Positions 47,190 through 64,000 of a stretch of DNA of 64,000 nucleotides are shown here, one piece after another. Within the stretch, counting starts at the first letter, position 1; every line of letters begins with the position of its first letter. The notes under the pieces are model-generated. The model was given only the letters and a program-made list of their open reading frames with translations, had not been told where the DNA came from and searched no databases. Source of the DNA: a virus. Taxonomy: Duplodnaviria > Caudoviricetes. A program made the position numbers and the translations under genes. Location: positions 32,001 through 96,000 of the IMG/VR virus record IMGVR_UViG_3300011217_000001. The stretch is one strand, 5' to 3'.

Positions 47190-47888
47190 ATGGCTGATGA
47201 AGAAGGTATCGTCGACATCAATCGCGGCATGTTCGTGGTCAACAACCTCCCCGTAGGTGGTTCCACGATCTACCGGGCGATCATGCGGATCAATCGACTG
47301 GAGCTGCACAGCGCGCCCCAGCCGGTGAACTTCCGTGCTCTGATCTACACGCTGGTGTTCTGGAAGAACCAGCCGGAGAAGGATCGCGACTACGCCAACG
47401 CCACGCCGTACCTGAACGGCATCAAGCTCGGTGTGCTCATCAAGGATGGCAACTACACCATCGAGCAGTTGGAGAAGATCGCCATCGACAACTTCCTGAA
47501 CTTCGTCGTTCCGGGCAAGCGGTCGATGGTCAGCGCCGATGAGATGGTCCGTCGGGTCAATGGCCACAAGGCACGCGTTACCACCTCCGTCAAGGACGAT
47601 GTGAAGGTGGGCGTGCGTGCAGTAACCCACAAGGCGATCTGGGAATCTCCCGAGCACAAGAACCTGGAGCTGGTCTACAACAAGATCAGCTACGAGGGTA
47701 TTGCCTACTGTCCGGATGGTTTCACGATCACCGGCGAGTGGGATCCGGAGAAGAACGGACCGCTGGAAGTTGAGGGCGACTACGCGGTAGGCGGCGATCT
47801 GATCACCGCTGCCTCCGACCACTTCCGCACCAACGGCTTCATCGCCCAGTGCGAAGGTAAGGAGGTAGACCATGGCGAGGAAGCGTGA
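47190..47888 (+). CDS. Hypothetical protein in the fibre operon
   Basis: 232 aa, tightly coupled to its neighbours. Confidence 0.72.
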   Translation: MADEEGIVDINRGMFVVNNLPVGGSTIYRAIMRINRLELHSAPQPVNFRALIYTLVFWKNQPEKDRDYANATPYLNGIKLGVLIKDGNYTIEQLEKIAIDNFLNFVVPGKRSMVSADEMVRRVNGHKARVTTSVKDDVKVGVRAVTHKAIWESPEHKNLELVYNKISYEGIAYCPDGFTITGEWDPEKNGPLEVEGDYAVGGDLITAASDHFRTNGFIAQCEGKEVDHGEEA

Positions 47889-48534
47889 GCTTCTGATCAA
47901 ACAGGGGACGGCGATGACAACCGTCGCCCCCTCGATCAAGTTGAACGGTGCCATGGTGAAGATCAAGAAGGGTTGGCAGAAGATCAATGGGGTCATGGTT
48001 CCGATCTTTGATGCCGACCCACTTGGTCCTGAGACCACGCCGCTGACCTTCCAGGCCTTCACCGGCAGGGATAGCGCAAGCGCTGGCGGCACACCCCGCA
48101 TTGGTTATCACGGCTTCCGACGCTACGCGGGAACTGTCAGGAATGATGATCCGATCGGATACCTGATCACCACCAACGCTTCCCGGGTACTGTCAGCTAC
48201 CATTGGACGTGTCCTTATTTCCACAGGTGGCGGGCAGGGGAGTAGTCAGTTCGATACTCTGACCATCATGCTCAACGACCGTACCGTCAACCCGGATGGT
48301 TCGACGACGGTGAACTGGGCGGTCAAACGACTCAGGGTCGTGTTCGAACGCAGCGGTGGCAACGATGTTCAACTTGAAATGTTCGAGATTGCTGAGAATG
48401 CGACCCGTGAGGTTGCAACCACCAATCCAAACGCCCCGCCGAAGATTGGTATACTGAACCTTCCGGTCCCTACCGAGTTCATGCCTTACGCTGCAGAGGG
48501 TAAGTTGACACTGGAACTCAACTACGAGCAATAA
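47872..48534 (+). CDS. Putative fibre-tip/adhesin protein
   Basis: N-terminal IKLNGAMVKIKKGWQKINGVMVPIF motif; start may be 47914. Confidence 0.62.
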   Translation: MARKRELLIKQGTAMTTVAPSIKLNGAMVKIKKGWQKINGVMVPIFDADPLGPETTPLTFQAFTGRDSASAGGTPRIGYHGFRRYAGTVRNDDPIGYLITTNASRVLSATIGRVLISTGGGQGSSQFDTLTIMLNDRTVNPDGSTTVNWAVKRLRVVFERSGGNDVQLEMFEIAENATREVATTNPNAPPKIGILNLPVPTEFMPYAAEGKLTLELNYEQ

Positions 48535-48608: not shown

Positions 48609-49085
48609 CTACATCGCGGGGGTGGGAGGAACTCCGGCGCCCGAGAATGCCTTGACAAGTTCAATCAGGAACTTAAACACCGCATCGATCAATCCCTGAT
48701 CCGGTGCAGTACCGTTCTTCACGGCAGCGGCGTTGACGGCCAAGATGACCAGGAACGCGATGACAACAGATGCCGTCAGGGCCAGCATCAGCATCAGCAG
48801 GCGCGGATTCTTCACCAGCGATTCGATCAGTCCGGCGTGCTTCTTCTTTGCCTTCTTGACCGGCTTGGTTTCCGGCTTGCGAATCTTCAACGACAGGGCC
48901 AGCAGCGTCTCCTGCTTTTCAGCAGGCAGCTTGCTGATCTCCGCCAACAGCTCAACGCCCGTGGTGGCCAGGGTGACCTCAGCCTCTTCCAGGAAATCGT
49001 TGGTGTAGTCGACAATGCGCTGACCCCAGGGGAAATCCGCCAGGGTCAGTTCACCGACGACCTTTACGGCGTCGCGCATTTTCAT
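48609..49085 (-). CDS. Membrane protein
   Basis: From MKMRDAV (GAGG SD); hydrophobic LLMLMLALTASVVIAFLVILAV plus an amphipathic C-terminal helix. Confidence 0.68.
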   Translation of the reverse strand: MKMRDAVKVVGELTLADFPWGQRIVDYTNDFLEEAEVTLATTGVELLAEISKLPAEKQETLLALSLKIRKPETKPVKKAKKKHAGLIESLVKNPRLLMLMLALTASVVIAFLVILAVNAAAVKNGTAPDQGLIDAVFKFLIELVKAFSGAGVPPTPAM

Positions 49086-49671
49086 TGGGTTTGACCTCTT
49101 TAGCGCAACCAAGCAGGTATGCGCAATGACAGTAGGCCACTGCGATCGCGTCCACTGAATGTTCGTCCAGTGAATCGTAATCGATGCCTTCGGCAAAAGT
49201 AAGATTGGGTACTTTGCAAACCAGACGCTTCATTGCGTCCTTATCGCTCTTACCAGTTCCGCCTACTGCCAACTTCACCGATGGAGGATCTACAGCGAGC
49301 AGCGGGATGTTTTCATCATACTGCCGCAGTGCGAAACGGAGAAGGTAAACACATTCGACCAGCGCATGGAAGACCGTGGCAAACTTGCGCATAAATGGTG
49401 ATTCGGAAATCACCGAGTTGGGTTCGAATGTGCGCAGGAGACGCGCAATCTCGTCCTCCAGCATCCGATGTCGAGGAACCCGACCCCCGTGCACTTCCTG
49501 CAGCACGGGGTATCGGACATCAGCATTGCTGGCATGGATCGTATCGACAAAGATCACCTCAACAGTAGAGGTTTCAAAGTCGATCTCCAAGACTGCCGTG
49601 CCCAGACAGTAGCCACCGGGGTCCACTCCGAACACCCGGTACTTTCTATCACGTTCCGGCATCACCAGCAT
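49051..49671 (-). CDS. ruvC: RuvC-like Holliday junction resolvase
   Basis: VFGVDPG, VISESPF, PPSVKLAVGG...DKDAM and DEHSVDAIAVAY. Confidence 0.88.
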   Translation of the reverse strand: MLVMPERDRKYRVFGVDPGGYCLGTAVLEIDFETSTVEVIFVDTIHASNADVRYPVLQEVHGGRVPRHRMLEDEIARLLRTFEPNSVISESPFMRKFATVFHALVECVYLLRFALRQYDENIPLLAVDPPSVKLAVGGTGKSDKDAMKRLVCKVPNLTFAEGIDYDSLDEHSVDAIAVAYCHCAYLLGCAKEVKPNENARRRKGRR

Positions 49672-49688
49672 AAGAACACCTCGCTGGA

Positions 49689-50549
49689 TCAGTTACCGGT
49701 GGTAACGGCCGACGGCTTGAACATCGGCTCGGTCGCGCCCAGGTTCACCTTCAGGTTGAAGCCCATATTGGTGAAGCCCACCGGGTAGTGACCGGTCATG
49801 TGGGCAGCGATCTGTGCAGCCACTGCTTCTTCGTACTGGATCGTGGTGTTGCCCGGGCCCGGACCGGTGACGATCTTGGTCGCAGCAGTCACCATGCCGA
49901 TCTCGGAGATCACCGCGTAGCGCTCGTCCTTGAACAGGATGCGCATGGCATTGACGAACTCGGCCACGTCGTTGGCGGTGAAGTCCAGCGGCAGGATCGC
50001 CGACACGGACAGGTAATCGCCGGAGGTGGTGACGGTGCCGGTGCTCGGGTATTCCGGAGCGGTCGGATTGAGGTTGCTGTTGTCCGGACGGAACGGCGTG
50101 GTGGTGACCTGGCCGTCCACTACCTTGTTGTAGTAGATGTCCGGCGACACCGAATCCATCGGGATCTTCTTCAGGTAGTAGGCCACATAGTTGCGGCCAT
50201 CCACCTGGATGATCTTGCGCATGCCATAGCGAGCGCGTGCAGCAGCGTCCAGGTCGTTGGTCAGCTCGCGCATGACGAACGGCAGGGGGCGGAACAGGCC
50301 AGCGTCGGTGGGACGATGGTCGATCGGACTGGTCAGCGGGAAGCCGTCAGCGCCGGTTTCGTTGCGGTGACCACCTTGACCGATGGTGTAGTAGCCCATG
50401 TACGGGATCTTGCCAGCTTCGGGCAGGACGTTGGCCTGGACTTCGTACTTCTCGTTGAGCGTGCTGTTGGGCAGCGCCTTGTAGGGCTTGCCGATCAGCA
50501 GCTCGGTCTGACGCAGGCAGCCGTAGCCAGTACGGGTAATGATTTTCAC
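49689..50549 (-). CDS. Virion structural protein (phiKZ-like conserved)
   Basis: NSTLNEK, YYTIGQGGH, H-x-PTDAGLF-x-PLPFVMR and YVAYYLK; GTG start. Confidence 0.68.
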   Translation of the reverse strand: MKIITRTGYGCLRQTELLIGKPYKALPNSTLNEKYEVQANVLPEAGKIPYMGYYTIGQGGHRNETGADGFPLTSPIDHRPTDAGLFRPLPFVMRELTNDLDAAARARYGMRKIIQVDGRNYVAYYLKKIPMDSVSPDIYYNKVVDGQVTTTPFRPDNSNLNPTAPEYPSTGTVTTSGDYLSVSAILPLDFTANDVAEFVNAMRILFKDERYAVISEIGMVTAATKIVTGPGPGNTTIQYEEAVAAQIAAHMTGHYPVGFTNMGFNLKVNLGATEPMFKPSAVTTGN

Positions 50550-50624
50550 GTGGGAATACCTTTGTTCGTTTTGACGTAAGACGCGCTATACGATAGCGTG
50601 CTGGAGGTAATTCTCTACACGGGC

Positions 50625-51707
50625 TCAGTAAGGCTGTTCGCGACGCACGTCGTAGGGGATGACCAGCTTGCCGCGCAGGTTCTTGCACAGCGGGCCCAGC
50701 TCGATCACCAGCACATGACTGTAGTCATTGCAACCGCAGTGGAACGGACCTTCGTTGCGGCCGTTGTAGACGATGCGCGCGCCGGAGACATTGAACTCTA
50801 CTTCCTGCGGGGAGGAGATCCAGAAGTCACCGGTCAGTCGCGTGCCATCGCGCCACTTGCCGTCATGGGTACGTACCGGTTCACCGACACGATACTTCAA
50901 CAGGTTCTGGTAGAGGATGGTGCCTTCCAGATCCTGGTAGTACGACTCGGCCAGCTGCTTGCGACCCTGACCACCGAGGTGATCGGGATAGATGAAACCT
51001 GACAGGTCCGTCACGCAGATCATCGCGCTGAGGCGATTGTCCGGGATCAGGATGACTTCCATCGCGCCGATCCAGACCAGGCAGTTCGGACGGAAGCGAA
51101 GGCGAGCCAGGAAATGACCACGCTGCAGCCAGCTCGGCGGGCAGTTGGAGAAGTCGACGTCGAAGTCTTCCATGTCCAACCAGATGCGGTAGCGATCACG
51201 CATTGCCTGCGCTACGCTCTCCTTGGTCATCCGGGCGTCCACGTGCAAGTGGATGTGCGTCTTGCCCAGATACGCTTCCATCAACATGCGATGGTAAGTG
51301 AACGTCTCGCTGCTGCACCAGCCGGTCTTGCGAGTCGGTGTGATGTGCACCTGCGTCAGCGTGTTGCCCAGTGCGGCTGGAGCGCTGAGCTCCAACTGGT
51401 CGGGTGCGAAGTCCGTCTCGTTGGCACGGTTGATCAGATCGACCAGTACGTGCTTACCCGGCTTGTTGTACGGGTAGATCGGTTCGGCACACTGCCAGGC
51501 TTCAGGCTGACGATGCTGATGCGGGAAGTGCTCGTAGTGTCGGGGATCAGGGCGCGGATGGGAGTGCCCGTGATCGTGGTGATCGTGCGGACCCTGTGCA
51601 GACGGCCGACGTCCTTGAATCGGCGGGGCCGAGCTCCAACTATCTTGATCCGAGAAGTTCCCGGGGGACGAGTGTCCACCTCGCGGGAAGGGAGGCTGGC
51701 TGTGCAT
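50625..51707 (-). CDS. Member of the modular paralogue family with a His/Pro-rich leader
   Basis: GGAG SD; YNKPGKHVLVDLINRANE... module and LSAMICVTDLSGFIYP motif shared with the 51862-59781 array. Confidence 0.75.
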   Translation of the reverse strand: MHSQPPFPRGGHSSPGNFSDQDSWSSAPPIQGRRPSAQGPHDHHDHGHSHPRPDPRHYEHFPHQHRQPEAWQCAEPIYPYNKPGKHVLVDLINRANETDFAPDQLELSAPAALGNTLTQVHITPTRKTGWCSSETFTYHRMLMEAYLGKTHIHLHVDARMTKESVAQAMRDRYRIWLDMEDFDVDFSNCPPSWLQRGHFLARLRFRPNCLVWIGAMEVILIPDNRLSAMICVTDLSGFIYPDHLGGQGRKQLAESYYQDLEGTILYQNLLKYRVGEPVRTHDGKWRDGTRLTGDFWISSPQEVEFNVSGARIVYNGRNEGPFHCGCNDYSHVLVIELGPLCKNLRGKLVIPYDVRREQPY

Positions 51708-51766
51708 GCAAAGACTCCGTTAAAGGGAAAAGGAAAGCATCGAAAGCGTCGATGTTTTCGGGGTAG

Positions 51767-51812
51767 CCATAAGATTGGGTGGCGTCCTTTTATAAAGACC
51801 AATCCTATGTCC
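51767..51812. promoter_or_regulatory. Divergent pair of putative late promoters, CCAATC(C/T)TATG
   Basis: CCAATCTTATG on the minus strand (~51768-51778) and CCAATCCTATG on the plus strand (~51799-51809), each pointing at its flanking gene; TATG is the phiKZ late-promoter motif. Confidence 0.5.
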
Positions 51813-51861
51813 TAGGAGGGATACTAGACATCCACCCAGCCATTTCAAAGGAGTCTTTCCA

Positions 51862-53061
51862 ATGAGCGAAATTGACCAGAGTCAGACCAGCGACAAGTTG
51901 TTGCTGAACCTGATCAACGTCGAGAACGAGAGCACCATCGAGCGCGAGCAGATCGACTTCGGTCTGCCCAACACGCTGGCCGAGCCGATCGAAGGCAGCG
52001 ATGCCAACACCCGTACCGAGGTGATCGCGGTTCCGGATGCCCCTTGGAACAAGAGCGTCAAGGTGGAATACCACCGCCGCGAGCTGCCGCGCTACTTCGG
52101 CGATGAGATCGAGGTGTCCGTCCCCAAGGGCGCTTCCAAGGAAGACATCGTCTCGCGCATCAACGCCGAGTACGGCACGAAGCTGGCCCACCTGGAGATG
52201 GAGATCTCCCCGGCGCCGTCGGCAGACAACATCCCGGGCGAGTTCGTCCTGAAGGCAGTACCGAATTCGCTGGGCTACATCGGTCAGGTGCCCCTGATTC
52301 TGGATCTGGTCCGTTCGCCGTTGAGCGATCGTCTGACCAAGTCGGATCTGGATGGCTTCATCTATCCGAACGCCAACACGCCCTCGCTGAACAACATCAT
52401 CCTCGAACGCAATGTCCTGGGTCCGACTGGCGTCCCGGCCATTGTTTCGAGCGGGATCACTGACAACCGCAAGGGCTTCAACTTCGCCAAGAATGGCGAG
52501 GTAGTGGCGTTCGTGCGTGCCTTCAATACCACGGGTGGTTGGGATACCACCGGCGGCGTGGGCGTTGACCCGAATGCGGAGGGCATCTACCCGATCCGTA
52601 CCGCCACCGGCTCGCACAGCAACTTCGGCTATGCTCGAAGCTGGCAGGTTGCATTCGGTTTCCAGCTGACTGCCGAACAGACCAAGTTCCAGGACATCCT
52701 GGAAGGTTACGACGTCGAGGTGGAAATCAAGACCTCCTTCCCCAATGGCACGGGCGAGAAGACGGTCACCTGCCGCGCCGAGTACTTGCCTACCGACGCC
52801 ACGCGTCTGCGGCTGGTCAACAAGGAAACGGGTGCTGTCGTTGGTAACATGTCCAATACCGGCTCGGGCAAGACCACCTACAAGTCCCTCCTCAGTACCA
52901 GCAGTCAGGCACTGTTCCCGGGCATGCAGGTCACTGAAACTTCGGTCAACGGTACGCGCATGTCGATCTATCGCGGTCGGATCAAGACCAAGCTGACCCT
53001 GACCCGCAAGACCGGTCGTGCCAAGGTGGTCGAGATCATCACCGAAGCCATCGCATCGTAA
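51862..53061 (+). CDS. Modular paralogue 1 (conserved N-module + variable domain)
   Basis: LLLNLINVENE...PW...INAEYG...LSDRLTKSDLDGFIYP...NGEV...RKTGRAK. Confidence 0.8.
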   Translation: MSEIDQSQTSDKLLLNLINVENESTIEREQIDFGLPNTLAEPIEGSDANTRTEVIAVPDAPWNKSVKVEYHRRELPRYFGDEIEVSVPKGASKEDIVSRINAEYGTKLAHLEMEISPAPSADNIPGEFVLKAVPNSLGYIGQVPLILDLVRSPLSDRLTKSDLDGFIYPNANTPSLNNIILERNVLGPTGVPAIVSSGITDNRKGFNFAKNGEVVAFVRAFNTTGGWDTTGGVGVDPNAEGIYPIRTATGSHSNFGYARSWQVAFGFQLTAEQTKFQDILEGYDVEVEIKTSFPNGTGEKTVTCRAEYLPTDATRLRLVNKETGAVVGNMSNTGSGKTTYKSLLSTSSQALFPGMQVTETSVNGTRMSIYRGRIKTKLTLTRKTGRAKVVEIITEAIAS

Positions 53062-53071
53062 GGAGTAGTCC

Positions 53072-55000
53072 ATGGACGTTTGCCCATTGGCAAAGCCCAG
53101 CAAGCTGCTTGTCCTCGACCTGGTCAACCAGGAGAACGACAGCAGCATCACCGAGGAGCAGTTGATCTTCGGTGAAGTGGAATCGAACGAGGAGGGCGGT
53201 AACACCGCCCTCCGTCTCACGGCTGCACCTGATGCGCCGTGGAACAGCTTCGTTGACACCACCTTCGATCGTCTCGATCTGGCGGTGCTGTTCAACAACG
53301 AGCGCGCGGAAGTCTCCCTGCCCAAGGGCGCAACTGCCGCTGACCTGATCTGTCATTTGAACTTCACCTACGACCTGAAGTTTGACGTCAATGAATTCGA
53401 CGTCGTTCCGCAGGAAGATGGTGAACTGCCGGAACTGTACAAGGTCACGGCGAAAGCTGGCAACATGGCCTACGTGGGCTCGGTCGATGTATTTGCCGAT
53501 CTCGATCGCATGCCCTTGTCGGCCCGACTGCTCACCACGGACCTGAACGGCTTCAAGTACCCGTACCGGGGACCGTCGCTGGACCACGTGGTGTACGATC
53601 AGGATACCGACTACAGCGCCTTCGGTAACTTCGGTTACTATGGTCGTCCCAACGACCCGTCACTGATCCCGGAATATCGACGTGGTGCACTCTCTGGTGA
53701 CAACGGAGAAGTGAAAGCGTACATGATGTACGAAGTTCCCACCTACGATCCGACCCTGGCTGCCAATCAGTCTGGAGTTGGTCGTTTCTATGGTCCTCGT
53801 GATGCTGTCGACGGCGTGGTGATTATCCCGCAGCCGAAGGTAGCCTTGCGTCAGGGCAATGCGGAGCCCGTACTTCTCGTCGGCATTCAGTCCTCTGATG
53901 GGACGACCGTCCTTACCACCAAGGGCATCACTGATACATACGACGCAACCTTGCGTCTTGTCTCTGGTAACGGCGGCAGTCAGCGTAGCGTGCGCACCTA
54001 TACGCTCATCGATGCTCCTGAGCGTATCGATGCTATCTATTGGAAGGCCGATCCGGATTCTGCCAAGGCAGGTTCTATCGACGTCATGGGCGTGCTGTCC
54101 GGCGGCGGGACGATGATTCGTACGTACGACTACCCCGGTACATTCAACCGCTCCATGCCTGGCGTGACTGCTTGGTCTGGTTCCGTCGATGGGCGAACCA
54201 TCCGTCGAGTATTCGGTGAGGTTGAAGCCACGTTGACGTTGCAGCGTAAGGTCGGTCCTGCCGAACCGATCGTCCTGCATCTGAAGATGCGGACTGATCC
54301 GATTGAAGGGGCGGTCGGTACGCTGGACAAACCGGCTTACTTCGCCTCGCAGCCCGTGGGCCTGCCCAACGGTCTCGGCGTGACCAATATCCCCGGCGAT
54401 ACCGGTGGGCTTGTTGATTACGCCGAGAACGGTGAAGTTATCGTCTACAACCGTGCGGTGCAGGCAACAGCTGTCAGTGGTGAGGTGCGGGCAACACCCA
54501 CGCGCACCCCGAAGACGTCTATCATCAACACCAGGATGGAGCCTTGGCGCGTTTCCCTAGGCCTGAGCCGTGACATCGATGCGCTCGGCGATGATCGTGT
54601 CATGAAGGAATATGACATTCAGCTGGTTTCGCGTAGCAGGCCGGCGAGCAATGCTTCTTGGGTCACCGAAATCCGTGACATGGTCAGTCGAGTCGACGCC
54701 AATGGGAAGCTTCAGTACGACCTGAAGTTGCAGGGTGGTACGAACGCCTACAACGCCGGTAGCAGGAAGATCGGCGAGAAGAACTTCTGGATTGCATCCA
54801 TCCAGCCCAATGGTAACCAGAGCACTGCTGCTATCGCCCTCGCAGATGTCCCACCGTTCCACAAGGGTCTGAATGTAACTCAACTGGGCACAGGTCGGTA
54901 CGCATACATCGGCCAGACCGAACATCGCTGGAAACTCAAGCGCAAAGACGGCAAGGGCGCTGCGATCGAGCTGGTTACCCTCTACGACTTCAAGGCATAA
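53072..55000 (+). CDS. Modular paralogue 2 (N-module + two variable domains)
   Basis: MDVCPLAK start; DLDRMPLSARLLTTDLNGFKYP; two NGEV...RKxG units. Confidence 0.8.
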   Translation: MDVCPLAKPSKLLVLDLVNQENDSSITEEQLIFGEVESNEEGGNTALRLTAAPDAPWNSFVDTTFDRLDLAVLFNNERAEVSLPKGATAADLICHLNFTYDLKFDVNEFDVVPQEDGELPELYKVTAKAGNMAYVGSVDVFADLDRMPLSARLLTTDLNGFKYPYRGPSLDHVVYDQDTDYSAFGNFGYYGRPNDPSLIPEYRRGALSGDNGEVKAYMMYEVPTYDPTLAANQSGVGRFYGPRDAVDGVVIIPQPKVALRQGNAEPVLLVGIQSSDGTTVLTTKGITDTYDATLRLVSGNGGSQRSVRTYTLIDAPERIDAIYWKADPDSAKAGSIDVMGVLSGGGTMIRTYDYPGTFNRSMPGVTAWSGSVDGRTIRRVFGEVEATLTLQRKVGPAEPIVLHLKMRTDPIEGAVGTLDKPAYFASQPVGLPNGLGVTNIPGDTGGLVDYAENGEVIVYNRAVQATAVSGEVRATPTRTPKTSIINTRMEPWRVSLGLSRDIDALGDDRVMKEYDIQLVSRSRPASNASWVTEIRDMVSRVDANGKLQYDLKLQGGTNAYNAGSRKIGEKNFWIASIQPNGNQSTAAIALADVPPFHKGLNVTQLGTGRYAYIGQTEHRWKLKRKDGKGAAIELVTLYDFKA

Positions 55001-55012
55001 CAGGAGTAAACA

Positions 55013-56224
55013 ATGGACATCTGTCCGCTGGCAAAATCGGGTGAGGAGCTCATCCTCAACCTGATCAACTCCGAGAACAACACGGAGATCACGGCCGAGC
55101 AGCTGGTGCTCGGTACGCCTGCGGCCAACAGCGAGGGCGGCAACACCGCCCTCAACGTTGCAGCCGCCGAAGACGCACCCTGGAACAAGTTCGTCGACGT
55201 TTCCTACGATCGACTGGACGTGGCCACCGTCTTCCACAATGAACGGGCGGAGATTTCACTGCCCAAGGGCGCCACCACGTCTGATCTGGTCTGTCACCTC
55301 AACTACACCTACGGCACTGCCTTCAAGGTGGATGAGTTCGACATCAAGCCGATCGAGGACGGTGAGCTGCCCGAACTGTACGAGATGACCGCCAAGGCGG
55401 ACAACCTCGCCTACACCGGTACGCTGCAGGTCTTCGCGGACCTCGACCGGATGCCGCTGTCGGCTCGCCTGACGGTGACCGATCTGAATGGCTTCGGCTA
55501 TTACAGCGAAAGCATCCCTTCGCTCAACAACATCATCGTTGAGAACAACGTAACGATGCCGGCCAGTTACCCGGTGGCGATCGGTCGTGGCGTGGACAAT
55601 CGGGTCGGCTATAACTTCGCCAAGAATGGTGAAGTAGTGGTCGGTTGGCGGGGTATTCGCCATACCAACTTCGCCACTGAATCATCCAGCGGGGCATCTC
55701 GTCGGGGCGATGGCAGCATCATCCTCAATACCGAAACTCCGACCGGCTCTCCCCCGGGCGGCGGCAACACGTGGCGTGGACGTCCGTGGCGCTTCTGCAT
55801 GTACCTCGGACTCGATCCTGCGCAGAACACGTTTGCGCATATCGCCGACGGCTACGACATGTCCATTGAGCTGACCACCAAGAGCGACGGTGCTCCGTTC
55901 ATCGTGACGGGTGCCTTGGTGCGCTCTGGCAATGACCTGGTGTGGCAGAGCAGCATCGGACTGAACATCCCGCTGACCTACAACAGCAACCAGAAGATGT
56001 ACGTCTTCCAGTTGGATGACCTCATCGACAACTCCACCACCATCACGATTCGCCGCCTGCTCAACGGTCTGCGTATGACCGAACGCAAGGTAGCGGGCCC
56101 GGGTATCATCTACAACGGTATCTGGATCCGCAACGGTGACTTCACCGCGACGCTGAAACTCGTCCGCAAGACCGGTCGCGCTAAGCCTGTCGAGATGACG
56201 ATGGTCAGCACTGTTTCCGCGTAA
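55013..56224 (+). CDS. Modular paralogue 3
   Basis: MDICPLAK...DLDRMPLSARLTVTDLNGFGYY...NGEV...RKTGRAKP. Confidence 0.8.
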   Translation: MDICPLAKSGEELILNLINSENNTEITAEQLVLGTPAANSEGGNTALNVAAAEDAPWNKFVDVSYDRLDVATVFHNERAEISLPKGATTSDLVCHLNYTYGTAFKVDEFDIKPIEDGELPELYEMTAKADNLAYTGTLQVFADLDRMPLSARLTVTDLNGFGYYSESIPSLNNIIVENNVTMPASYPVAIGRGVDNRVGYNFAKNGEVVVGWRGIRHTNFATESSSGASRRGDGSIILNTETPTGSPPGGGNTWRGRPWRFCMYLGLDPAQNTFAHIADGYDMSIELTTKSDGAPFIVTGALVRSGNDLVWQSSIGLNIPLTYNSNQKMYVFQLDDLIDNSTTITIRRLLNGLRMTERKVAGPGIIYNGIWIRNGDFTATLKLVRKTGRAKPVEMTMVSTVSA

Positions 56225-56239
56225 CACGAGGAACCTTAG

Positions 56240-57457
56240 ATGGACGTCTGTCCCCTTGCAAAGACCGGTCAGGAGCTGGTCCTCGAATTGGTGAACGCCG
56301 AGAACTCCTCGGCGATCACTGAGGAGCAGCTTGTCTTCGGCTTGCCCGAAGGCACTGATGCTGAACAGAACACCAAGCTGAACCTGACGGCGGCTGTCGA
56401 CTCGCCCTGGAACAGCTTCGTGGACGTGGAGTACGATCGCCTTGACCTGAACACCTTGTTCCACGGTCAGCGCGCTGAAGTCTCCGTCCCGAAGGCTGCA
56501 ACACCTGCCGACATCATCTGTCATCTGAACTTCACCTACGGGACCAAGTTCGATGTCAATGAGTTCAAGGTGACGCCGGTTGAAGACGGTGAGCTGCCTG
56601 AGCTCTACAAGGTCGAAGCGCTCGACAACAACCTGGCCTACACCGGCACGTTCGACGTGTTCGTTGATCTGGAGCGGATGCCTCTGAGCGCACGCCTCCT
56701 GAAGACGGACCTGGAAGGTTTCACCTATCCGAACGCAGGCGAGCCCAGTTTCAACAACGTGATCTACAACGCCAACGAAACCGGCCTCATCGGCATCACT
56801 CAGCTCGGCGCCTACTCTGAAGCCCCAGCAAGTGATCGTGACCAGTGGCGTACTGGCATGCGTTCGGCCAACAACGGTGAACTGCTCATCTACGTCGGTG
56901 GCGATGTGTCCACCAGTCATCGCAACGTCAGTAGTCGGGCCAACATCAGTAAGTTCAATTGGCCTTACGAAGACGGCGTGATGATCCTGCCGCAGATGAA
57001 AATTGGCGGTGACGTTACGCAGTCTGCTTTCTTCATCTCCTGCGGTTTCCGACGCGTCAACGCGATGGACTGGACTGCGGCTGAGTTGCTCGAATTGTAC
57101 GACATCAGCGTGGAGGCCTTCAGTCGTAATCGCCAGACGAACGACAACATGGCCATTGGTTTCACACGCCGAGCGATCGCGCGAGTGCATCCCTCCAACC
57201 CGCAGACCATCCAGTGGCTGCTGGAAGACAATAGTACGCGCAACTGGTCTCTTGTGAACAACGCAGCCACCGGCAACTGGTTCCGTTCGTCCATCCAGCC
57301 GGGCGTCGGCATACTCCCGGGCTTCCGTGGCTGGTCTGGCTCCGGCGCCAGCCGTGCTCATGGTGAAGGTCATCTCACCATCACCGCCAAACGCAAGGAT
57401 GGCAAGGGCAAGCCGCTGGTCGTACGTCTGGACTTCCGCACGGATCCGGCTTTCTAA
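56240..57457 (+). CDS. Modular paralogue 4
   Basis: MDVCPLAK...DLERMPLSARLLKTDLEGFTYP...NGEL...RKDGKGKP. Confidence 0.8.
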   Translation: MDVCPLAKTGQELVLELVNAENSSAITEEQLVFGLPEGTDAEQNTKLNLTAAVDSPWNSFVDVEYDRLDLNTLFHGQRAEVSVPKAATPADIICHLNFTYGTKFDVNEFKVTPVEDGELPELYKVEALDNNLAYTGTFDVFVDLERMPLSARLLKTDLEGFTYPNAGEPSFNNVIYNANETGLIGITQLGAYSEAPASDRDQWRTGMRSANNGELLIYVGGDVSTSHRNVSSRANISKFNWPYEDGVMILPQMKIGGDVTQSAFFISCGFRRVNAMDWTAAELLELYDISVEAFSRNRQTNDNMAIGFTRRAIARVHPSNPQTIQWLLEDNSTRNWSLVNNAATGNWFRSSIQPGVGILPGFRGWSGSGASRAHGEGHLTITAKRKDGKGKPLVVRLDFRTDPAF

Positions 57458-57491
57458 TCCCACCGCTTCACCCACCACAGCAGGTACTTAG

Positions 57492-58655
57492 ATGGACGTC
57501 TGTCCTCTCGCAAAGTCCGGCTCCGAGTTGATCCTGGATCTGATCAACGCCGAGAACGGTTCCACCATCACCGAAGATCAGATTGTCTTCGGTGAGCCCA
57601 CTGCCTCCACGGAAGATGGCAACACGGGCCTGAACGTCGCTGCTGCGGAAGACTCTCCGTGGAACAGCTTCGTCGATGTCAAGTACGATCGTCTGGATCT
57701 GGCAACGCTGTTCGGCGATCAGGACGTTTCGGTGTCCGTGCCGAAGGAAGCCACGGCGGCCGATATCATCTGCCACCTCAACTTCACCTACGACCTGAAC
57801 TTCAAGGTCGACGAGTTCGATCTGCTGCCGCAGGAAGACGGCGCAATCCCCGAGCCGTACAAGCTGCGCGCGAAGGCGAACAATCTCGCCTACACCGGCG
57901 AGTTCCCGCTCTTCGTTGATCTGGAGCGCATGCCCTTGTCGGCACGTATCCTCGTCACCGATCTGGACGGCTTCGGTTATCCCAACAGCGATATCCCGTC
58001 GCCGAACAACCCGATCCAAGTCCAGGTGCCGACTCGCTCATCGGGTAGCTCGTACTACGCAGCCTTCACCAAGGACTACGGTGATCTGCAGTTGAAGATC
58101 GAACTGGGGATGGGCGGTAATACCCCGCCGGCTATCCCGGTGCGGGTGCTCGACCGTACCGACGGCGTGCGCCAGATGGCATGGCGTTACAGCAACCAGG
58201 GCTCCTCCACGGCCTCGATCGAGGTCACTGCCTCGAAGGGCGGCGTGGCTTTGAAGACCGCCGCTATCCTGGACGACTACGATATCAGCGTCATCGAAAT
58301 CGGCACCCTGGGTGAAGGTCCGGAGATGAAGGTGATCTTGGCCGAGGCCAATGGCACTGGCGCCCCGCTCAGGAGCGATGACGGGCTGACCTACCCGATT
58401 CGCTTCAACGCCGCTCCTACCAACAACTTCGCCATGAGGATGCTGGTCGATGTTGGCAGCAGCCAGCCGGCAGTCGGAACCTACGCTCGCATCCTGCGTG
58501 ATACGTACGGTGTCGGCTACGGCTCGGCCACCGGTGGCGGTTCGACCTGGTACTACCGCCGTGGGCAGATGATCTATCGCCTGAAGCTGAAGCATCGTCG
58601 CAACCCGAACAAGCCCGACTTCTTCATCGATTTCCCGGTCGAGTTCACCCTGTAA
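57492..58655 (+). CDS. Modular paralogue 5
   Basis: MDVCPLAK...DLERMPLSARILVTDLDGFGYP. Confidence 0.8.
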   Translation: MDVCPLAKSGSELILDLINAENGSTITEDQIVFGEPTASTEDGNTGLNVAAAEDSPWNSFVDVKYDRLDLATLFGDQDVSVSVPKEATAADIICHLNFTYDLNFKVDEFDLLPQEDGAIPEPYKLRAKANNLAYTGEFPLFVDLERMPLSARILVTDLDGFGYPNSDIPSPNNPIQVQVPTRSSGSSYYAAFTKDYGDLQLKIELGMGGNTPPAIPVRVLDRTDGVRQMAWRYSNQGSSTASIEVTASKGGVALKTAAILDDYDISVIEIGTLGEGPEMKVILAEANGTGAPLRSDDGLTYPIRFNAAPTNNFAMRMLVDVGSSQPAVGTYARILRDTYGVGYGSATGGGSTWYYRRGQMIYRLKLKHRRNPNKPDFFIDFPVEFTL

Positions 58656-58731
58656 TAGCCGAAAGCGACCGACTCTCGCGAATCATGTGAGCGTCTCCTC
58701 ATCCCCGCTCCACCCAAAAGGTACTTAGAAA

Positions 58732-59781
58732 ATGATCGACTACTTGAACAAGCCGGGTAAGGAACTCCTCCTGGACCTGATCAACGATGACAACGATGCC
58801 ACCTTCACCTTCGAAGAGCTGATCTTCGGGCCGCCGGTGGAACTGAGCAAGAACCAGGACGAGCGCAACACCGCCTGTACGGTCACCGCTTCGCCGACCA
58901 GCTACTGGTACGGTCCGGTCACCACGCGCTTCGAGCGCCTGTTCCTGGATCGCATGTTCATCGACCAGGAAGTCGAGTTCTCCGCCAAGGACGTCGTGTC
59001 CGACGCAACCCTGCTCGACGCGCTGAACGCCGAATACGGCCTGAAGCTGGAACCGACTGACGTCGAAGTCATCGGCGCCTACCCGGGCGAGTTCGGTACT
59101 GCCGAACTGACCGTCAAGGCCAAGCCGGGTTCGTACGTGTACCTCGGCGAGATGGTCGTCCAGCTGATCGCTGAAAAGATCATGCTGCCGAACTACATCA
59201 CCCACACCACGCTGAAGGGCTTCCAGTACCCCGAAGCAGTGCCGGCTCACGTGGGCAAGGTGGTCAACGCCTACACCGAAGCGCTGACCAACCCGGGCAT
59301 GGATCCGTCGATCGTGGACCACGTGTTCTACGAAGTGGGCACCAACCAGGAAGCCATCGTCGGCGTCGGCGCCAACATGAACGGCAAGGTGGCCTGGTCC
59401 AACGGTGGTCACGACGTCACCGGCGGTGCCAAGTTCATGGTGCTGTTCGAACTGGCCAACCCGGCCTCGCTGGCTGAAGGCGCCAAGATCGAAAGTCTGT
59501 ACGACTTCCGTCTGCGCGTGGAAGGCAACCGCGAGGTGTCCTACAAGTTCATGGCTGAAGACGGCAACTACTTCCTGCGTCAGGAAGTGACCGGCGACGC
59601 CGTGGTGGACCTGGACGACATCCCGCTGGTGGCCTCTGCCTCGGGCCTGAAGTTCCAGGCGCTGGTTGACCTGGAAGCCATCATCGGTGGCGTGCAGTCG
59701 GCAACCGCCGTGGCCATCCGCAAGGCCGGCTTCGGTCCGCGCGTGCTGGGTCACTTCACCCTGTCCAAGCCGCAGACCTAA
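58732..59781 (+). CDS. Modular paralogue 6 (divergent, strongly codon-biased)
   Basis: LNKPGKELLLDLINDDND...LNAEYG...LPNYITHTTLKGFQYP...RKAG. Confidence 0.78.
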   Translation: MIDYLNKPGKELLLDLINDDNDATFTFEELIFGPPVELSKNQDERNTACTVTASPTSYWYGPVTTRFERLFLDRMFIDQEVEFSAKDVVSDATLLDALNAEYGLKLEPTDVEVIGAYPGEFGTAELTVKAKPGSYVYLGEMVVQLIAEKIMLPNYITHTTLKGFQYPEAVPAHVGKVVNAYTEALTNPGMDPSIVDHVFYEVGTNQEAIVGVGANMNGKVAWSNGGHDVTGGAKFMVLFELANPASLAEGAKIESLYDFRLRVEGNREVSYKFMAEDGNYFLRQEVTGDAVVDLDDIPLVASASGLKFQALVDLEAIIGGVQSATAVAIRKAGFGPRVLGHFTLSKPQT

Positions 59782-59801
59782 TCTGCGACCGGCAGTCGAA
59801 G

Positions 59802-59840
59802 GACATAGAGGGAGGGGCGAAAGCCCCTCCCCTTATGCCG
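59802..59840. terminator. Bidirectional hairpin of the CATA...TATGCCG family
   Basis: GACATAGA-GGGAGGGGC-GAAA-GCCCCTCCC-CTTATGCCG. Confidence 0.82.
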
Positions 59841-62540
59841 TTAGCCGAACATCTCAGCCAGCTTAGCAACGAAGCCGCTAGCCGGAATCTGGACAGTGAA
59901 GCTGCCCGTCAGTCGCATGCTCTTGGCCGAAGCCGTCATCGTCACCGTGGTTGCATTGGAGGCAATGGCGGAATAGACGAACTCATCGCGCGACAGCTCC
60001 ATGCCGTACTTGCGATTGAGCCAGTCCACAACTTCGTAGACGTCCATCGGGCGCACGTCCCCGTCCCAGCGCAGATTCGCGCCAGTGAAGTACGTGGCCA
60101 GATTCAACAGCGGTGCCTGCAGCTCGATGACGCCAGTGTAACGCTCCACCTCTGCCGTATTGCGCGGAGGGATAGCGGTGACCAGCACCTTGGCATTTGC
60201 ACCCACAGCGCCGGTACGAGCGATCGTAGCGTTGTGAGGATACACTGCGGCAGTGTTGTCATCGTTCATGCGACGAATCACCGACCAGCCATTGGGCATT
60301 GCCAGCAGCGGATTGGTGTCTGCTGCCAGATACTTACCGGCCGTGAAACGAGCGGTGGCATCAAAAGCAGACAACGTGGTCTTGGTGATCTGACTGGCCA
60401 ACGTCTTGGAAGGCTCCTGGACGAGGGAGAAGCGGACATTGAGCATGTCCACGTTCTCAGTCACTTCACGCTTCACGCCACCTTCGAACCCAACGGACAT
60501 GTCCGTGGAGAGCTCGTGGAACTTGGTGGAAGACACATCGAACTCCACCATGTCGCCGATCATGTCGTAATCGACTTCATGGCGAGCCAGCGTATCTGCA
60601 CTGAGCACCCGCACTGCCAGCTTGGACAGGTCCGTGACATCGCCAGCCGTGGTGTAGTCATCACCCAGGCGGATGACCGCAAAGTCAGCCATCTTCAACG
60701 CATCGGAGTTGATGGAGGAGATGAACTGGATGGCGTAGCTGGACAGCTGCTCCATCAGCGAGATCATCGCCTGCTGGAGCTCCTTGGCCGACTTGGTGTT
60801 GGTGCTGTCCATGCCAGTTGCCGCGCGCAGGATGCCGGTAGCCAACAGATCCAGTTCCAAGACGCTGTAGTCGTGGATCAGGTAGTTGTTATCGGTCAGC
60901 CAATCCTCGTAGAAGCGTGTGCTGCCAAAGTCCACCGGCACATTGTAGAAGAACCGGTGCGCAAGCGCCTCGGTCATGCCACGGGTCATCTCGTGTTCCT
61001 GCGTCGCGTAAACGTCACGCTGATGCATGGTGTAGTTGTAGATGTCCTGGCAGGCTTCGTAGAAGGTCACGGTGGAGATGATCTTGGATGGGATCATGTC
61101 CGGGTGACCCTCGTAGAGGGCCTCTATGATGTTGTCCTTGATGTACTTGCGATCGACGATGGTCCACAGCTCCGAGGGACGCGGGGCAGGGTCACGCAGG
61201 ATGTGGCGCGCCTCCAGCTTGGGCAGACGAACCAGATCAACACCACGGGCCTTGTTGTAAGCCCACAGGTAAACGATGAACGCATTACGCACCGTCATGC
61301 GTACACCTTCACCCGAGCGCGGATCGGGTACGGTGATTACCGGTGTGAAGCGATCGTTATTGCTCCAGAAGATCCAGTGGTTGAGCAGCGTGTCCGACAT
61401 CGTGAACGGCATGGAATCGGTCAGGTCCAGCATTGCCGATTCCAGCACCTTCGTCGGGAACTTGTCCATCGCAGCAGTCTGGATGGCTTCCTCAATCAAG
61501 GGCTCTTCGTAGCCCTGCACTGCGGCGTTATCCTTTGCCGCAGGCTGCTCTGCATCGAGCATCCGTGCCACGGTACGTACGTCGTCACCGGTCTGGTTGA
61601 AGCCGAAGTTCAACGCAGTGCGGAACAGACGTGCCGCCGGTTCGATGTTCTCAGGCTGGTCTTCCAGATCATGGCGAATGTCCCACTTGGCCAGTGGGAT
61701 ACCACGTTCGGTCAGCAGGTTCTGCAGCAGGTCATCGAAGGTTTCCTGCTTACCCGGATTGCGCTCGATGTAGCGGATGTTACGATACAGCCACAGCATC
61801 TGCTTCTTGGTCAGCGTGTCGATGAACGTGTCCAGCTTACCGTGGCTGGCCAGGAACTCGCGGATGTGGAAGCTGTGGGCATATCGAGTGTGGGCATTGC
61901 CATCGCGGATTGCCATCAGCTTGCCGGGGATGTTCGCACCGATGGCAGCAAACATCGCACCGATGTACATGTCGTCGGTCAGCTGGAAAGCCGGAACCAG
62001 CCAGCGCACGATCACACGGCGCAGCCATGCTTCAAGTTCCGGGATCAGGTTGCGCTCGTTGCTCTCCACCAGCGTCTGGTCGTAGTACAAGATCGTACCG
62101 TCAGCGCAGTTGTAGATGGTGGAGAAGTCCTCGGCGTCGGAGTCGTTGGGCGTGAACCCAGCGGTGAGATCGATCGGATTGAGGATGCCGTTGATCAAGC
62201 TGACCTGCCGGGGATACTTGGCGCGCAGCTCCTTGTAGTAGTCCCCATGGGTGGAGTATTCGCGCTTGGTGACGCGATGCTCGGCCAAACTTTCCTTGGT
62301 GAACTCTATTCTTTGAAGCGTGTCCAGCGAGGTGACATACATCAGTTTGTCCGCTGGATGATATTCGCCGGCCATGTTCTTGTAGTAGCGCCAGCTACTG
62401 GGATCTTCGTCCCGTACTTCGTAACCCAGTTCACGAAGGTACTGATTGATCGCCTCAGCGGCGTCAGCGGACTTGATGACCAGCGAGCGCGCCAGAGCGA
62501 GCACATCGTCGACGTAAAGTTTGTAATACGCAGTGGACAC
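59841..62540 (-). CDS. Virion structural protein (phiKZ gp128-like) with a C-terminal extension
   Basis: GTG start at 62540 with GGGAGG SD; LARSLVIK, WRYYKNMAGEYH, VTSLDT, AHSFHIREFLASH, LYRNIRYI and TKVLES; divergent from the portal gene. Confidence 0.75.
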   Translation of the reverse strand: MSTAYYKLYVDDVLALARSLVIKSADAAEAINQYLRELGYEVRDEDPSSWRYYKNMAGEYHPADKLMYVTSLDTLQRIEFTKESLAEHRVTKREYSTHGDYYKELRAKYPRQVSLINGILNPIDLTAGFTPNDSDAEDFSTIYNCADGTILYYDQTLVESNERNLIPELEAWLRRVIVRWLVPAFQLTDDMYIGAMFAAIGANIPGKLMAIRDGNAHTRYAHSFHIREFLASHGKLDTFIDTLTKKQMLWLYRNIRYIERNPGKQETFDDLLQNLLTERGIPLAKWDIRHDLEDQPENIEPAARLFRTALNFGFNQTGDDVRTVARMLDAEQPAAKDNAAVQGYEEPLIEEAIQTAAMDKFPTKVLESAMLDLTDSMPFTMSDTLLNHWIFWSNNDRFTPVITVPDPRSGEGVRMTVRNAFIVYLWAYNKARGVDLVRLPKLEARHILRDPAPRPSELWTIVDRKYIKDNIIEALYEGHPDMIPSKIISTVTFYEACQDIYNYTMHQRDVYATQEHEMTRGMTEALAHRFFYNVPVDFGSTRFYEDWLTDNNYLIHDYSVLELDLLATGILRAATGMDSTNTKSAKELQQAMISLMEQLSSYAIQFISSINSDALKMADFAVIRLGDDYTTAGDVTDLSKLAVRVLSADTLARHEVDYDMIGDMVEFDVSSTKFHELSTDMSVGFEGGVKREVTENVDMLNVRFSLVQEPSKTLASQITKTTLSAFDATARFTAGKYLAADTNPLLAMPNGWSVIRRMNDDNTAAVYPHNATIARTGAVGANAKVLVTAIPPRNTAEVERYTGVIELQAPLLNLATYFTGANLRWDGDVRPMDVYEVVDWLNRKYGMELSRDEFVYSAIASNATTVTMTASAKSMRLTGSFTVQIPASGFVAKLAEMFG

Positions 62541-62584
62541 CGCTGCGTCCTCCCTTCTTAAATGTTTGTGTACTGGAGTGGATA

Positions 62585-64000
62585 ATGAGCAACCTGCCGC
62601 CCGTCTTTTCGAAGGACAGCGATCGCCGTAAGGCAATGCCGAAGATCGGGTCTTTGAAAAACAGCCCGCAGCTCGGTTCGTTGGTCTCCAAGCTGGTGTA
62701 CGCCAACAGGGAAGTTCAGAACGGCAGCCTGCACCGCCGTCGTGAAGTGAACCTGCCTGGCGATCAGTTCTTCACCAAGCTCAGCGACAACACCGCAACC
62801 AATGTCACCGATTCGGCCAACCTGATGCAGCTGCTGCCGGATCTGCGTTTGAACATGCAGATCATGGTCAGCTCGATCCTGTCCCCGAAGGACATGGTCA
62901 ACGCGAAGTTGAACTATCGCGTCCAGGATGGCATCTTCGACAGCGAGCTTTCCGGCCTGTTGCTGGACGTGGTTTCTACCCACTTCTCGCAAGTCTATAA
63001 GATGGACAGCCGTCTTCCGACATTGTTGGAGGACATCCTGTATCACCGTGGTTCGCGCCCGATGATCATCCTGTCCGAGTCGACGATCGACGACGTCATC
63101 AACAACCCGACCCGCGCTTCCATGGAGTCCGTCAAGATCGCCGTGGAAGGCGCTGACAGCCAGTGTCTGGGTTGGCTGGGCCAACCTCCGGAGAAGTCCT
63201 CAGAGGCCGCCAAGGGCAGCGCTACGGCCGCTGGCGTGGGCTTTGCCATGGAGTCGTTCGGATCGGCCGCTGGTACGGCGCAGGTGCGCTACAACCCGAC
63301 CTTCCAACCCTTCAAGTCGACGGCTGAAAAGCCTACCGGCAAGCTGTTCATCAGTGACAATCCGGAGATGCTGAAGATGCCCGCGCTTGCGCAGGCAGCG
63401 ATCCATCACCGCAGCGATGCTATCCTCAAGCGTCGCAACAATCGCAAGGGTCTGCTGAACCTGCCCAAGGTCACCGTTGCTACCGAGTCTATCGGTGAGG
63501 ACGGCAAGCCCACGTTGCAGGAAGTCCAGTCGGCTCTGTACAGTCAGCGTCGTTACGCCGCGATGCCGGTGCAGACGCTGTACACCCGTGACCAACTGAA
63601 GACCAAGACCAAGGGTCATCCGCTGGTCATCGAAGCGCCGTCGGAAGCTGTGATCCCAGTGTTCGTGCCGTCTGATCCGTCCGATCACATCGGCTACTTC
63701 CTGGTCTGTGACGAACGTGGTCACCTGGTCAACAAGGCCACGCAGGACGACTACTACAACCAGCTCAACCAGAACGTCAACGCGAACAACGACATGATCA
63801 GTCAGCTGATCCAGTCGACGCATCGTGGCACGTTCGGAATGAAGGGCAACAACGAGATCGACGGCGAGTCGCTCCAGCGTGCCTACTCGGATATGGTTGA
63901 GCAGAACATGCTTGCCCGTCTGCGTGCTGGCGCATGCGGTGACAACGTGACCATCGCTCGTCCGGAGGAAGTCTTCCGGATCATGCTTGCTCGTACGCTG
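62585..64000 (+). CDS. Portal protein (phiKZ gp129-like), runs off the window
   Basis: Read by hand: MSNLPPVFSK...LLPDL...IMVSSILSPKDM...GHPLV...PSEAVIPVFVP...HIGYFL; contains SME/AME/ATE protease-type sites. Confidence 0.8.
   Translation, partial: MSNLPPVFSKDSDRRKAMPKIGSLKNSPQLGSLVSKLVYANREVQNGSLHRRREVNLPGDQFFTKLSDNTATNVTDSANLMQLLPDLRLNMQIMVSSILSPKDMVNAKLNYRVQDGIFDSELSGLLLDVVSTHFSQVYKMDSRLPTLLEDILYHRGSRPMIILSESTIDDVINNPTRASMESVKIAVEGADSQCLGWLGQPPEKSSEAAKGSATAAGVGFAMESFGSAAGTAQVRYNPTFQPFKSTAEKPTGKLFISDNPEMLKMPALAQAAIHHRSDAILKRRNNRKGLLNLPKVTVATESIGEDGKPTLQEVQSALYSQRRYAAMPVQTLYTRDQLKTKTKGHPLVIEAPSEAVIPVFVPSDPSDHIGYFLVCDERGHLVNKATQDDYYNQLNQNVNANNDMISQLIQSTHRGTFGMKGNNEIDGESLQRAYSDMVEQNMLARLRAGACGDNVTIARPEEVFRIMLARTL

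Follow-up and report, generated by a model that had tools for sequence, protein, structure and literature searches.

Why should a giant phage keep, side by side, seven genes whose products begin alike and end differently, and how do the differing ends arise? We addressed this question for an array of one divergent minus-strand gene (P0001) and six tandem genes (P0002 to P0007, tandem genes 1 to 6) in a 64-kb stretch of viral DNA, hereafter the window, which comprises bases 32001-96000 of a 230,357-bp IMG/VR record that is about 99% complete. The genome is that of a phiKZ-like chimallivirus, a giant nucleus-forming jumbo phage, and a close relative of Xanthomonas phage Xoo-sp14, to which the array region is ~84% identical in nucleotide sequence over the alignable 65%; its host is probably a Xanthomonas. 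Xoo-sp14 itself is among the phages whose PicA homologues were placed in a tree by a study of chimalliviruses. The best explanation of the locus as a whole, to which we assign a probability of roughly 0.7, is that the array encodes appendage subunits of the peripheral baseplate.

A constant DUF7941 module followed by diverging C-terminal parts

All seven proteins carry the junction motif L-x3-[LI]-x2-[TS]-[DT]-L-x-G-F-x-Y, in agreement with an initial annotation that had described six tandem genes and one divergent gene sharing an N-terminal module (N-module) with this ending, and whose open reading frames were exactly placed. Its last residue is number 163-168 in the six tandem proteins and 240 in P0001, and the N-module is about 165 residues long. 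Four N-modules, the 'MD(V/I)CPLAK' copies, had been singled out as very similar and are indeed 63-69% identical to one another (shuffle z 37-60), compared with 23-44% (z 10-31) to the other three. Each of the seven matches the Pfam family DUF7941 (PF25613) at 83.7-177.5 bits (E 2e-23 to 5e-52; gathering score 27 bits) as well as PHROG families 1037 and 2935, which are labelled 'virion structural protein', and the linker motif GFxYPN..PSLNN is kept across the tandem genes. The family size of seven given in the initial annotation is too low for the genome, in which Pfam finds ten DUF7941 matches. Of the additional three, one ends the adjacent minus-strand gene (Table 1) and two lie outside the window. 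The first of these two, on the plus strand (G000 111697-112848), encodes 384 residues with a C-terminal part that is unrecognised by the hidden Markov model (HMM) of the array C-modules, and the second (G000 113468-114034, minus strand) encodes a 188-residue protein that consists of the N-domain only and resembles gp23 of phage Goslar.

Structure prediction indicates that the N-module has the fold of the N-domain (residues 1-150) of phiKZ gp127. In the AlphaFold2 model of P0005, which was based on a 26-row family alignment and has a mean predicted local distance difference test score (pLDDT) of 82, residues 6-143 match gp127 in 9xqd with a Foldseek E of 1e-5 and a VIA Z of 9.2 (root-mean-square deviation, rmsd, 3.2 over 134 of 150 residues). 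The weaker P0007 model (pLDDT 66) gives Z 11.4 for the N-module against gp127 (9xqd_0; rmsd 2.9, 139 residues), and by sequence the relationship to gp127 is marginal (profile E 0.004). Two other hits were discarded: a match of the whole-family profile to the N-terminal region of flagellin (9rcb, E 0.0036, high bias) is spurious and absent from all fold searches, and P0025, a CHAT/TPR protein that an exhaustive search returned with nine short stretches, is a false positive driven by repeats.

P0001 is composed of a 75-residue extension, the N-domain, the linker and the canonical C-terminal domain of DUF7941, and it is the most conserved member of the family, with 96-97% identity to Xoo-sp14 gp137 and a ratio of non-synonymous to synonymous divergence (dN/dS) of 0.04. 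Its first 75 codons (51483-51707, minus strand) encode a His/Pro/Gly-rich and probably disordered segment that is kept in four close relatives, and the more distant metagenome contig L008, whose synteny is the same, has an extension of like composition and different sequence. In the six tandem proteins the DUF7941 match ends at model position 174-193 of 276. What follows in these proteins, here called the C-module, is not a diverged version of the canonical C-domain, an idea that we rejected on the basis of hhalign against the C-domain of P0001 (E 0.64 over 9 columns).

Directly after the motif similarity collapses, as had been noted before, and the remaining parts of the seven proteins are 19-34% identical in pairs. 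The sparse anchors reported for this region persist: in the 26-row alignment, which covers the window and four relatives, every row has the Y-D and one G, and the K of R-K-x-G is almost invariant. C-modules are linked by sequence in five of the six tandem genes, and P0003 (642 residues) contains two HMM domains of this type (~53675-54307, E 3e-62, and ~54413-54997, E 2.5e-49), a double architecture that is also found in four relatives. The C-terminal part of P0007 has no significant similarity to the other C-modules by BLAST, HMM or hhalign, and homology to them is unsupported (hhalign probability 2%, 35 columns around YD); it agrees with them in no more than the YD/RKxG motifs, the fold class and the succession of secondary-structure elements.

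Both modelled C-modules are predicted immunoglobulin (Ig)-like beta-sandwiches. For P0005, in which residues ~205-405 form the sandwich, AGS-C, an Ig-like domain of a Pycsar cyclase, ranks first (9ard; Z 7.3, 129 residues, rmsd 3.6), followed at Z ~5 by generic Ig (V domains), transglutaminase-barrel and carbohydrate-binding module (CBM; CBM56, CBM9) folds; a VIA Z below 8 speaks for fold class alone and gives no ligand, and 7.3 is within chance fold resemblance. The C-terminal part of P0007 is modelled as an Ig-like sandwich with Z ~6 and a match list that overlaps that of P0005, and around the YD and RK strands the two models have their secondary-structure elements in parallel order. Unrelated folds were therefore not seen in these two models. 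The earlier proposal of one scaffold fold with diverged surfaces is supported by the two Ig-like models and the sequence links among the C-modules of five of the six tandem genes, with the caveats that P0007 is unlinked by sequence and the variation is not confined to surfaces.

A profile of 22 C-modules retrieved 23 proteins at E <=1e-3 from 1.84 billion cluster representatives, and 16 of the 21 matches not already in hand have a DUF7941 N-module. By these searches the C-module is essentially confined to this phage lineage, since the matches are so few and mostly accompanied by DUF7941. A possible exception, which we regard as a lead, is a 765-residue protein on a 72-kb contig of an unrelated phage (L009 8001-10298; Logan SRR25456185), the C-terminus of which matches the C-module profile with E 6e-6; it is without a DUF7941 domain, and its gene lies ~5 kb from a collagen-like tail-fibre gene.

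Exchange of C-modules among related phages

The array was compared with those of Xoo-sp14, the Logan contigs L003 and L004, the IMG/VR genome L006 (identical to L005) and the fragment L007, and additionally with L008 and with a related contig of 232,020 nt from a public air-metagenome run (X1). We assigned the modules to N-types N1-N8 and C-types C1-C16, with C-types grouped at >=45% identity. The array is not identical in size or content across relatives: the number of tandem genes is six in the window and L003 and seven in Xoo-sp14 and L006, 16 C-types occur in five sequenced relatives, and N- and C-types assort independently. For example, N4 is joined to C11 in three phages and to C5 in Xoo-sp14, and N7 to C16 in the window and to C8 in three other phages, with C16 sitting on another N-module in L006. 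Likewise, N3 is followed by the double module in three phages and by a single C14 in L006, and C7 is combined with N6 in three phages and with N5 in L003. Two combinations are constant, namely N1:C1, the divergent gene, wherever it is included (five arrays), and N8:C9, which is always the last gene in every array that reaches the 3' end of the operon. This independent assortment, together with the placement of the N-module onto phiKZ gp127, agrees with the initial suggestion of a constant anchor that carries a diversifying repertoire.

The points at which identity is lost are sharp. Between the window and Xoo-sp14 the N-parts are 86-95% identical and the C-parts 27-78%, and 46 other genes of the window are typically ~90% identical. 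P0004 and Xoo-sp14 gp133 are 94% identical in their N-parts and 27% in their C-parts, with nucleotide identity falling from 0.90 to 0.41 at codon 163, and for P0006 and gp130 the values are 90% and 27%, with the break at codon 174. In all, nucleotide identity drops from 0.82-0.90 to 0.39-0.55 at codons 163, 166, 174 and 179, and these positions sit directly after GFxY or after PSxNN. Across the phages compared, breakpoints lie within codons 162-179. The X1 contig, which is the closest relative, matches the window at ~97% identity over 49600-56305 and 58673-62400. In genes 4 and 5 it retains the N-modules at 93-95% identity and has 626 and 631 unrelated bases in place of the C-modules, and it carries one inserted gene.

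In five of six tandem pairs synonymous divergence (dS) is higher in the C-part (0.84-1.5) than in the N-part (0.45-0.84), which suggests that most of the differences are imported older alleles and not the product of fast local change. The exception is P0007, with a dS of 0.29 in the C-part and 0.20 in the N-part and dN/dS values of 0.64 and 0.11, respectively; dN/dS is below 1 in all pairs. These sequence comparisons indicate that the array diversifies by cassette recombination at the conserved junction and not by local hypermutation. A diversity-generating retroelement (DGR) or some other programmed mutator of the C-terminal domains, which the constant N-part and variable C-part may superficially bring to mind, is refuted by the data: no reverse transcriptase (PF00078) was detected in the 230-kb genome by a search that was positive in control genomes, no repeat resembles a DGR template (the direct repeats are paralogous N-modules and short conserved anchors only), and the differences span whole 200-residue modules in which synonymous divergence is raised and which begin at sharp recombination breakpoints. 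We also considered intragenomic gene conversion of the N-modules, which is unsupported, as paralogues are 64-76% identical at the DNA level and positional orthologues 86-95% at the protein level.

Two further genes of the window are outliers in the comparison with Xoo-sp14. The genes at 46746-47180 and 47872-48531 (plus strand) are 52% and 51% identical to gp143 and gp141, and both are without a Pfam or PHROG match; lying just 3' of the tail-fibre genes, they may encode fibre-associated specificity or assembly factors. A gene for a RuvC-type Holliday-junction resolvase (49054-49392, minus strand) is situated two genes away from the array in all relatives examined, L008 among them.

A probable place at the baseplate rim and candidate functions

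By gene number and sequence matches the array occupies the slot of phiKZ gp126/gp127 beside gp128. In the phiKZ atlas, five gp139 dimers form a band that extends from the wedge protein gp128 and has gp127 at its far end (PMC13250141, Nat Commun 2026), and, with homologues of gp139 and gp128 on its two flanks, the array is enclosed by counterparts of the path towards gp127. Both the kinship with Xoo-sp14 and these flanking homologues place the array in a chimallivirus, beside genes of the peripheral baseplate. The resemblance to phiKZ gp126/gp127 (PDB 9XQD; PMC13250141) thus extends from the fold of the N-module (Z 9.2-11.4) to the adjacent gp128 homologue and the conserved gp139. Unlike the present phage, which has eight DUF7941 genes at the locus, phiKZ has two there (gp126 and gp127) and at least three overall according to a preprint on Goslar (bioRxiv 10.64898/2026.04.21.720040); moreover, phiKZ gp127 possesses the canonical DUF7941 C-domain, which at our locus is a feature of P0001 alone.

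Homologues of the array proteins have been found in virions of Goslar by mass spectrometry (bioRxiv 10.64898/2026.04.21.720040) and of phiKZ by cryo-electron microscopy (PMC13250141). According to the Goslar preprint, which appeared in April 2026, DUF7941 is chimallivirus-specific, and the ten Goslar members (gp22, gp23, gp31, gp33, gp34, gp86, gp91-93 and gp161) were all detected in virions, with hundreds to thousands of copies per virion (gp22 ~580, gp23 ~2140). The same source reports that purified gp22 forms filaments in vitro, that AlphaFold predicts head-to-tail contacts between the linker and C-domain of each protomer and the N-domain of its neighbour, that three members carry carbohydrate-binding, hydrolase or leucine-rich repeat (LRR) domains, and that phiKZ gp126/gp127 fit density of the outer peripheral baseplate (10.64898/2026.04.21.720040). 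Our locus is similar to the Goslar system, as described there, in the Pfam family, in having about ten paralogues per genome that are partly in tandem, in the conserved N-domain and linker with diverse C-terminal domains, in the adjoining gp139 homologue (Goslar gp32) and in the proposed host recognition from the peripheral baseplate. It differs in that a six-member operon shares an Ig-like module instead of CBM, glycoside hydrolase or LRR domains, in that one member has this module twice, and in the cassette exchange between close relatives, which is not mentioned in the available part of the preprint (10.64898/2026.04.21.720040). A further difference is that the Goslar proteins are known from virion proteomics and filaments and the present array from sequence and models.

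That the products are not virion parts at all, but are for example intracellular or injected proteins that merely share a domain with baseplate proteins, would agree with the lack of direct proteomic evidence for this clade and with the fact that PHROG labels are inherited annotations. We judge this very improbable, given the position of the array inside a block of baseplate and tail genes, its organisation as a co-oriented operon with strong ribosome-binding sites and the detection of all ten Goslar family members in virions. The abundance of the Goslar homologues, which are among the most abundant virion proteins, would make them prominent targets, and module turnover is rapid, so that variation might be driven by escape from bacterial immune sensors of abundant virion proteins and not by receptor choice; the top fold match of the C-module, the Pycsar defence cyclase, could be read in the same sense. 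This, too, is improbable, because the Z of that match is in the range of chance, the conserved N-module would stay a target, and chimallivirus virion proteins are made late in infection. The DUF7941 family is not known to be sensed by any defence system.

We therefore return to the array as a set of peripheral-baseplate appendage subunits and propose how these may work. The DUF7941 N-domain would be the docking domain, as is gp127 in the outer baseplate of phiKZ, where it caps the gp139 band, and each tandem protein comprises this domain, the conserved junction and linker (GFxYPN..PSLNN) and one or two exchangeable Ig-like modules. By analogy with the Goslar model, the linker of one protomer might dock on the next N-domain, and the products could then build flexible mixed filaments at the baseplate rim that show different beta-sandwich modules, which would most likely make the first, reversible contacts with the host surface. 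Homologous recombination between phages within the N-module and junction swaps whole C-modules and adds or removes genes. In this phage the presence of the proteins at the baseplate rim of the virion and their head-to-tail polymerisation are thus extrapolated from Goslar and phiKZ, and we infer binding of host ligands by the C-modules from how the array has evolved and from the domains to which other family members are fused. In ESM Atlas clusters, for instance, the same N-module is fused to GP38 (a T-even adhesin domain), LRR_5 or a TIM-barrel tail protein, and matches in BFVD are all jumbo-phage proteins, several of them labelled tail or tail-fibre.

Several observations weigh against this interpretation. 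The LucasX paper describes no visible tail fibres and contains no mass spectrometry, and the clade is without virion proteomics or microscopy. The canonical DUF7941 C-terminal domain (model ~176-276) is missing from the six tandem proteins and present in P0001 only, and in Goslar gp22 this domain takes part in docking, according to the preprint (10.64898/2026.04.21.720040); Goslar gp23 and the fused Goslar members described there likewise do without it, so it is not needed for DUF7941 membership. In our searches the C-module had no specific structural or sequence relative of known ligand: the ESM Atlas contained no C-module neighbour with a template modelling (TM) score above 0.5 and a search of it by sequence features gave no usable C-module match, and Pfam found nothing outside DUF7941 on the C-modules at E up to 1. 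Finally, variation is spread over predicted strands and loops, and identity in strands is no higher than in loops, for which reason we rejected the notion of a conserved scaffold with variable loops.

This even spread of variation would suit proteins that are purely architectural braces of the baseplate, in which the C-modules are weakly constrained spacers that drift and recombine neutrally, as would the generic fold of the C-module, the dN/dS values below 1 and the fact that phiKZ gp127, the one modelled DUF7941 protein, is described solely as the end of the gp139 band (PMC13250141). We nevertheless consider such a role unlikely. Whole modules are replaced in a phage that is ~97% identical over most of the locus, with neighbouring structural genes at 88-98%, which is a pattern typical of host-interaction genes; several distinct modules are present per genome, each type being 48-93% conserved between phages, which argues for selection on each type; and related N-modules in other proteins are joined to adhesin or carbohydrate-binding domains of known type.

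A more specific and tentative idea is that the array encodes a combinatorial, self-polymerising adhesin, in which each subunit would extend the filament, with its N-domain as socket and its linker as plug, and display its own Ig-like module. Virions would then bear mixed 'beads-on-a-string' fibres with five to seven specificities each, the C-terminal domain of the wedge protein could act as a second socket, and populations would re-tune their host range by cassette swaps at the junction. If this were true, receptor recognition would be organised unlike that of trimeric tail fibres and tailspikes.

Similar arrangements of constant anchors and varied ends are known from other phage proteins. The fibre paralogues gp131-gp135 of phiKZ, which form hetero-hexameric tail fibres (PMC13250141), resemble the array proteins in having similar N-terminal anchors, dissimilar C-domains and an attachment to the outer baseplate. 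They nonetheless belong to an unrelated family, and no gp131-type protein was among the matches of the array proteins in Pfam, PHROGs and PDB sequence and fold searches, in which the two were not compared directly. The N-termini of the gp131 family reportedly form a six-helix bundle, and the C-domain of gp131 a beta-propeller (structure of Sycheva et al. 2012). In mosaic receptor-binding proteins of tailed phages, such as the T-even gp37/gp38 cassettes and those of phages with multiple receptor-binding proteins, a conserved N-terminal attachment part is combined with exchangeable distal parts. The array shares with these the breakpoints at conserved junctions and, if our interpretation is correct, several specificities per virion, but has no sequence or Pfam kinship with them; some DUF7941 proteins elsewhere are fused to GP38 and none here, and in place of trimeric fibres the array has single Ig-like sandwiches on a putative polymerising subunit. 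PHROG matches at 34515-46733, upstream of the array, confirm the tail-fibre genes that the initial annotation had placed at 34.5-48.5 kb.

Little is understood of host finding by jumbo chimalliviruses, for which the 'DUF7941 fibre cloud' has so far been a proposal from one phage. The DUF7941 family and the principle of a constant module that carries varied recognition domains were already known in 2026. The locus adds independent comparative evidence from six related genomes, in which the docking module is kept and the distal modules are swapped at a fixed junction, and this exchange outpaces the divergence of almost any other gene in the window, which is the usual signature of host recognition. 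New aspects are the operon of six to seven genes built on one lineage-specific Ig-like module, including its tandem-double form, the direct evidence that very closely related phages swap cassettes at one fixed junction, and the DUF7941-like domain at the end of a wedge protein. It is also a tractable natural experiment: Xoo-sp14, which infects Xanthomonas oryzae pv. oryzae, is available in culture, and as cassette content is the main difference among its relatives, a direct comparison of host range and adsorption is feasible and of use in selecting phages for biocontrol.

Operon layout and the adjoining wedge gene

Table 1. Position of the array genes and of the elements that flank them in the window
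Feature	Position	Strand	Evidence or remark
gp139 homologue (DUF7208)	49692..50549	-	Pfam PF23838 E 1e-102; phmmer against PDB chain PHIKZ139 (9xpg/9xqd) E 1e-59
P0001, divergent member, full-length DUF7941	50625..51707	-	Pfam positions 3-275 of 276, E 5e-52
Divergent intergenic region, 154 nt; presumed promoter region for P0001 and the six-gene operon	51708..51861		Sole long gap upstream of the array
P0002, tandem gene 1: N2, linker, Ig-like C2	51862..53061	+	
P0003, tandem gene 2: N-module (53072-53560), linker, two tandem C-modules	53072..55000	+	
P0004, tandem gene 3: N4 and C11	55013..56224	+	
P0005, tandem gene 4: N6 and C7	56240..57457	+	AlphaFold2 model
P0006, tandem gene 5: N7 and C16	57492..58655	+	
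P0007, tandem gene 6: N8 and a shorter (183-residue) predicted beta-sandwich C-part	58732..59781	+	Pfam E 7.5e-34
GC-rich hairpin, 9-bp stem and GAAA loop, lying where the operon and the convergent gp128-like gene meet	59810..59831		Read from sequence
gp128 wedge homologue with terminal DUF7941 N-domain-like module (59886-60248)	59841..62540	-	phmmer against PHIKZ128 (9xqs_C) E 6e-100

The six tandem genes are 10-76 nt apart and preceded by GGAG-type ribosome-binding sites, and these short gaps and sites, together with the shared terminal hairpin, fit a single operon. The hairpin is probably a two-way terminator. Its 14-nt core is present in three copies in the genome, and in the X1 contig a 42-nt stretch that spans the hairpin has an identical second copy ~130 kb off on the opposite strand; it looks like a terminator element that the phage reuses. 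Scans for sigma-70 promoters and intrinsic terminators gave matches no commoner than the shuffled expectation, a result that says little because chimalliviruses use their own RNA polymerases, and among public runs no RNA run was listed that holds the array.

The DUF7941 N-domain-like module of the gp128 homologue covers residues 681-801 (Pfam E 3e-9) and is preceded, within 59886-60410 on the minus strand, by a junction-like segment, L-x-x-x-I-T-x-T-T-L-x-x-F. The order of segment and N-domain is thus reversed relative to the array proteins, and the module may act as a socket built into the wedge protein or represent a copy that complements itself. The wedge gene itself probably begins with a GTG at 62540, with an uncertainty that ranges from 62288 to 62636, and so upstream of the start annotated in Xoo-sp14. 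In the alignment of the two phages (59841-62636; L001 18335-21130), the 348 nt upstream of 62288 differ with a bias towards third positions of the minus frame (2/5/19), which supports the longer frame. Conversely, Xoosp14_127, which is annotated there on the plus strand, has the opposite codon-position pattern and its counterpart in the window contains an in-frame stop, so that this annotated gene is probably spurious.

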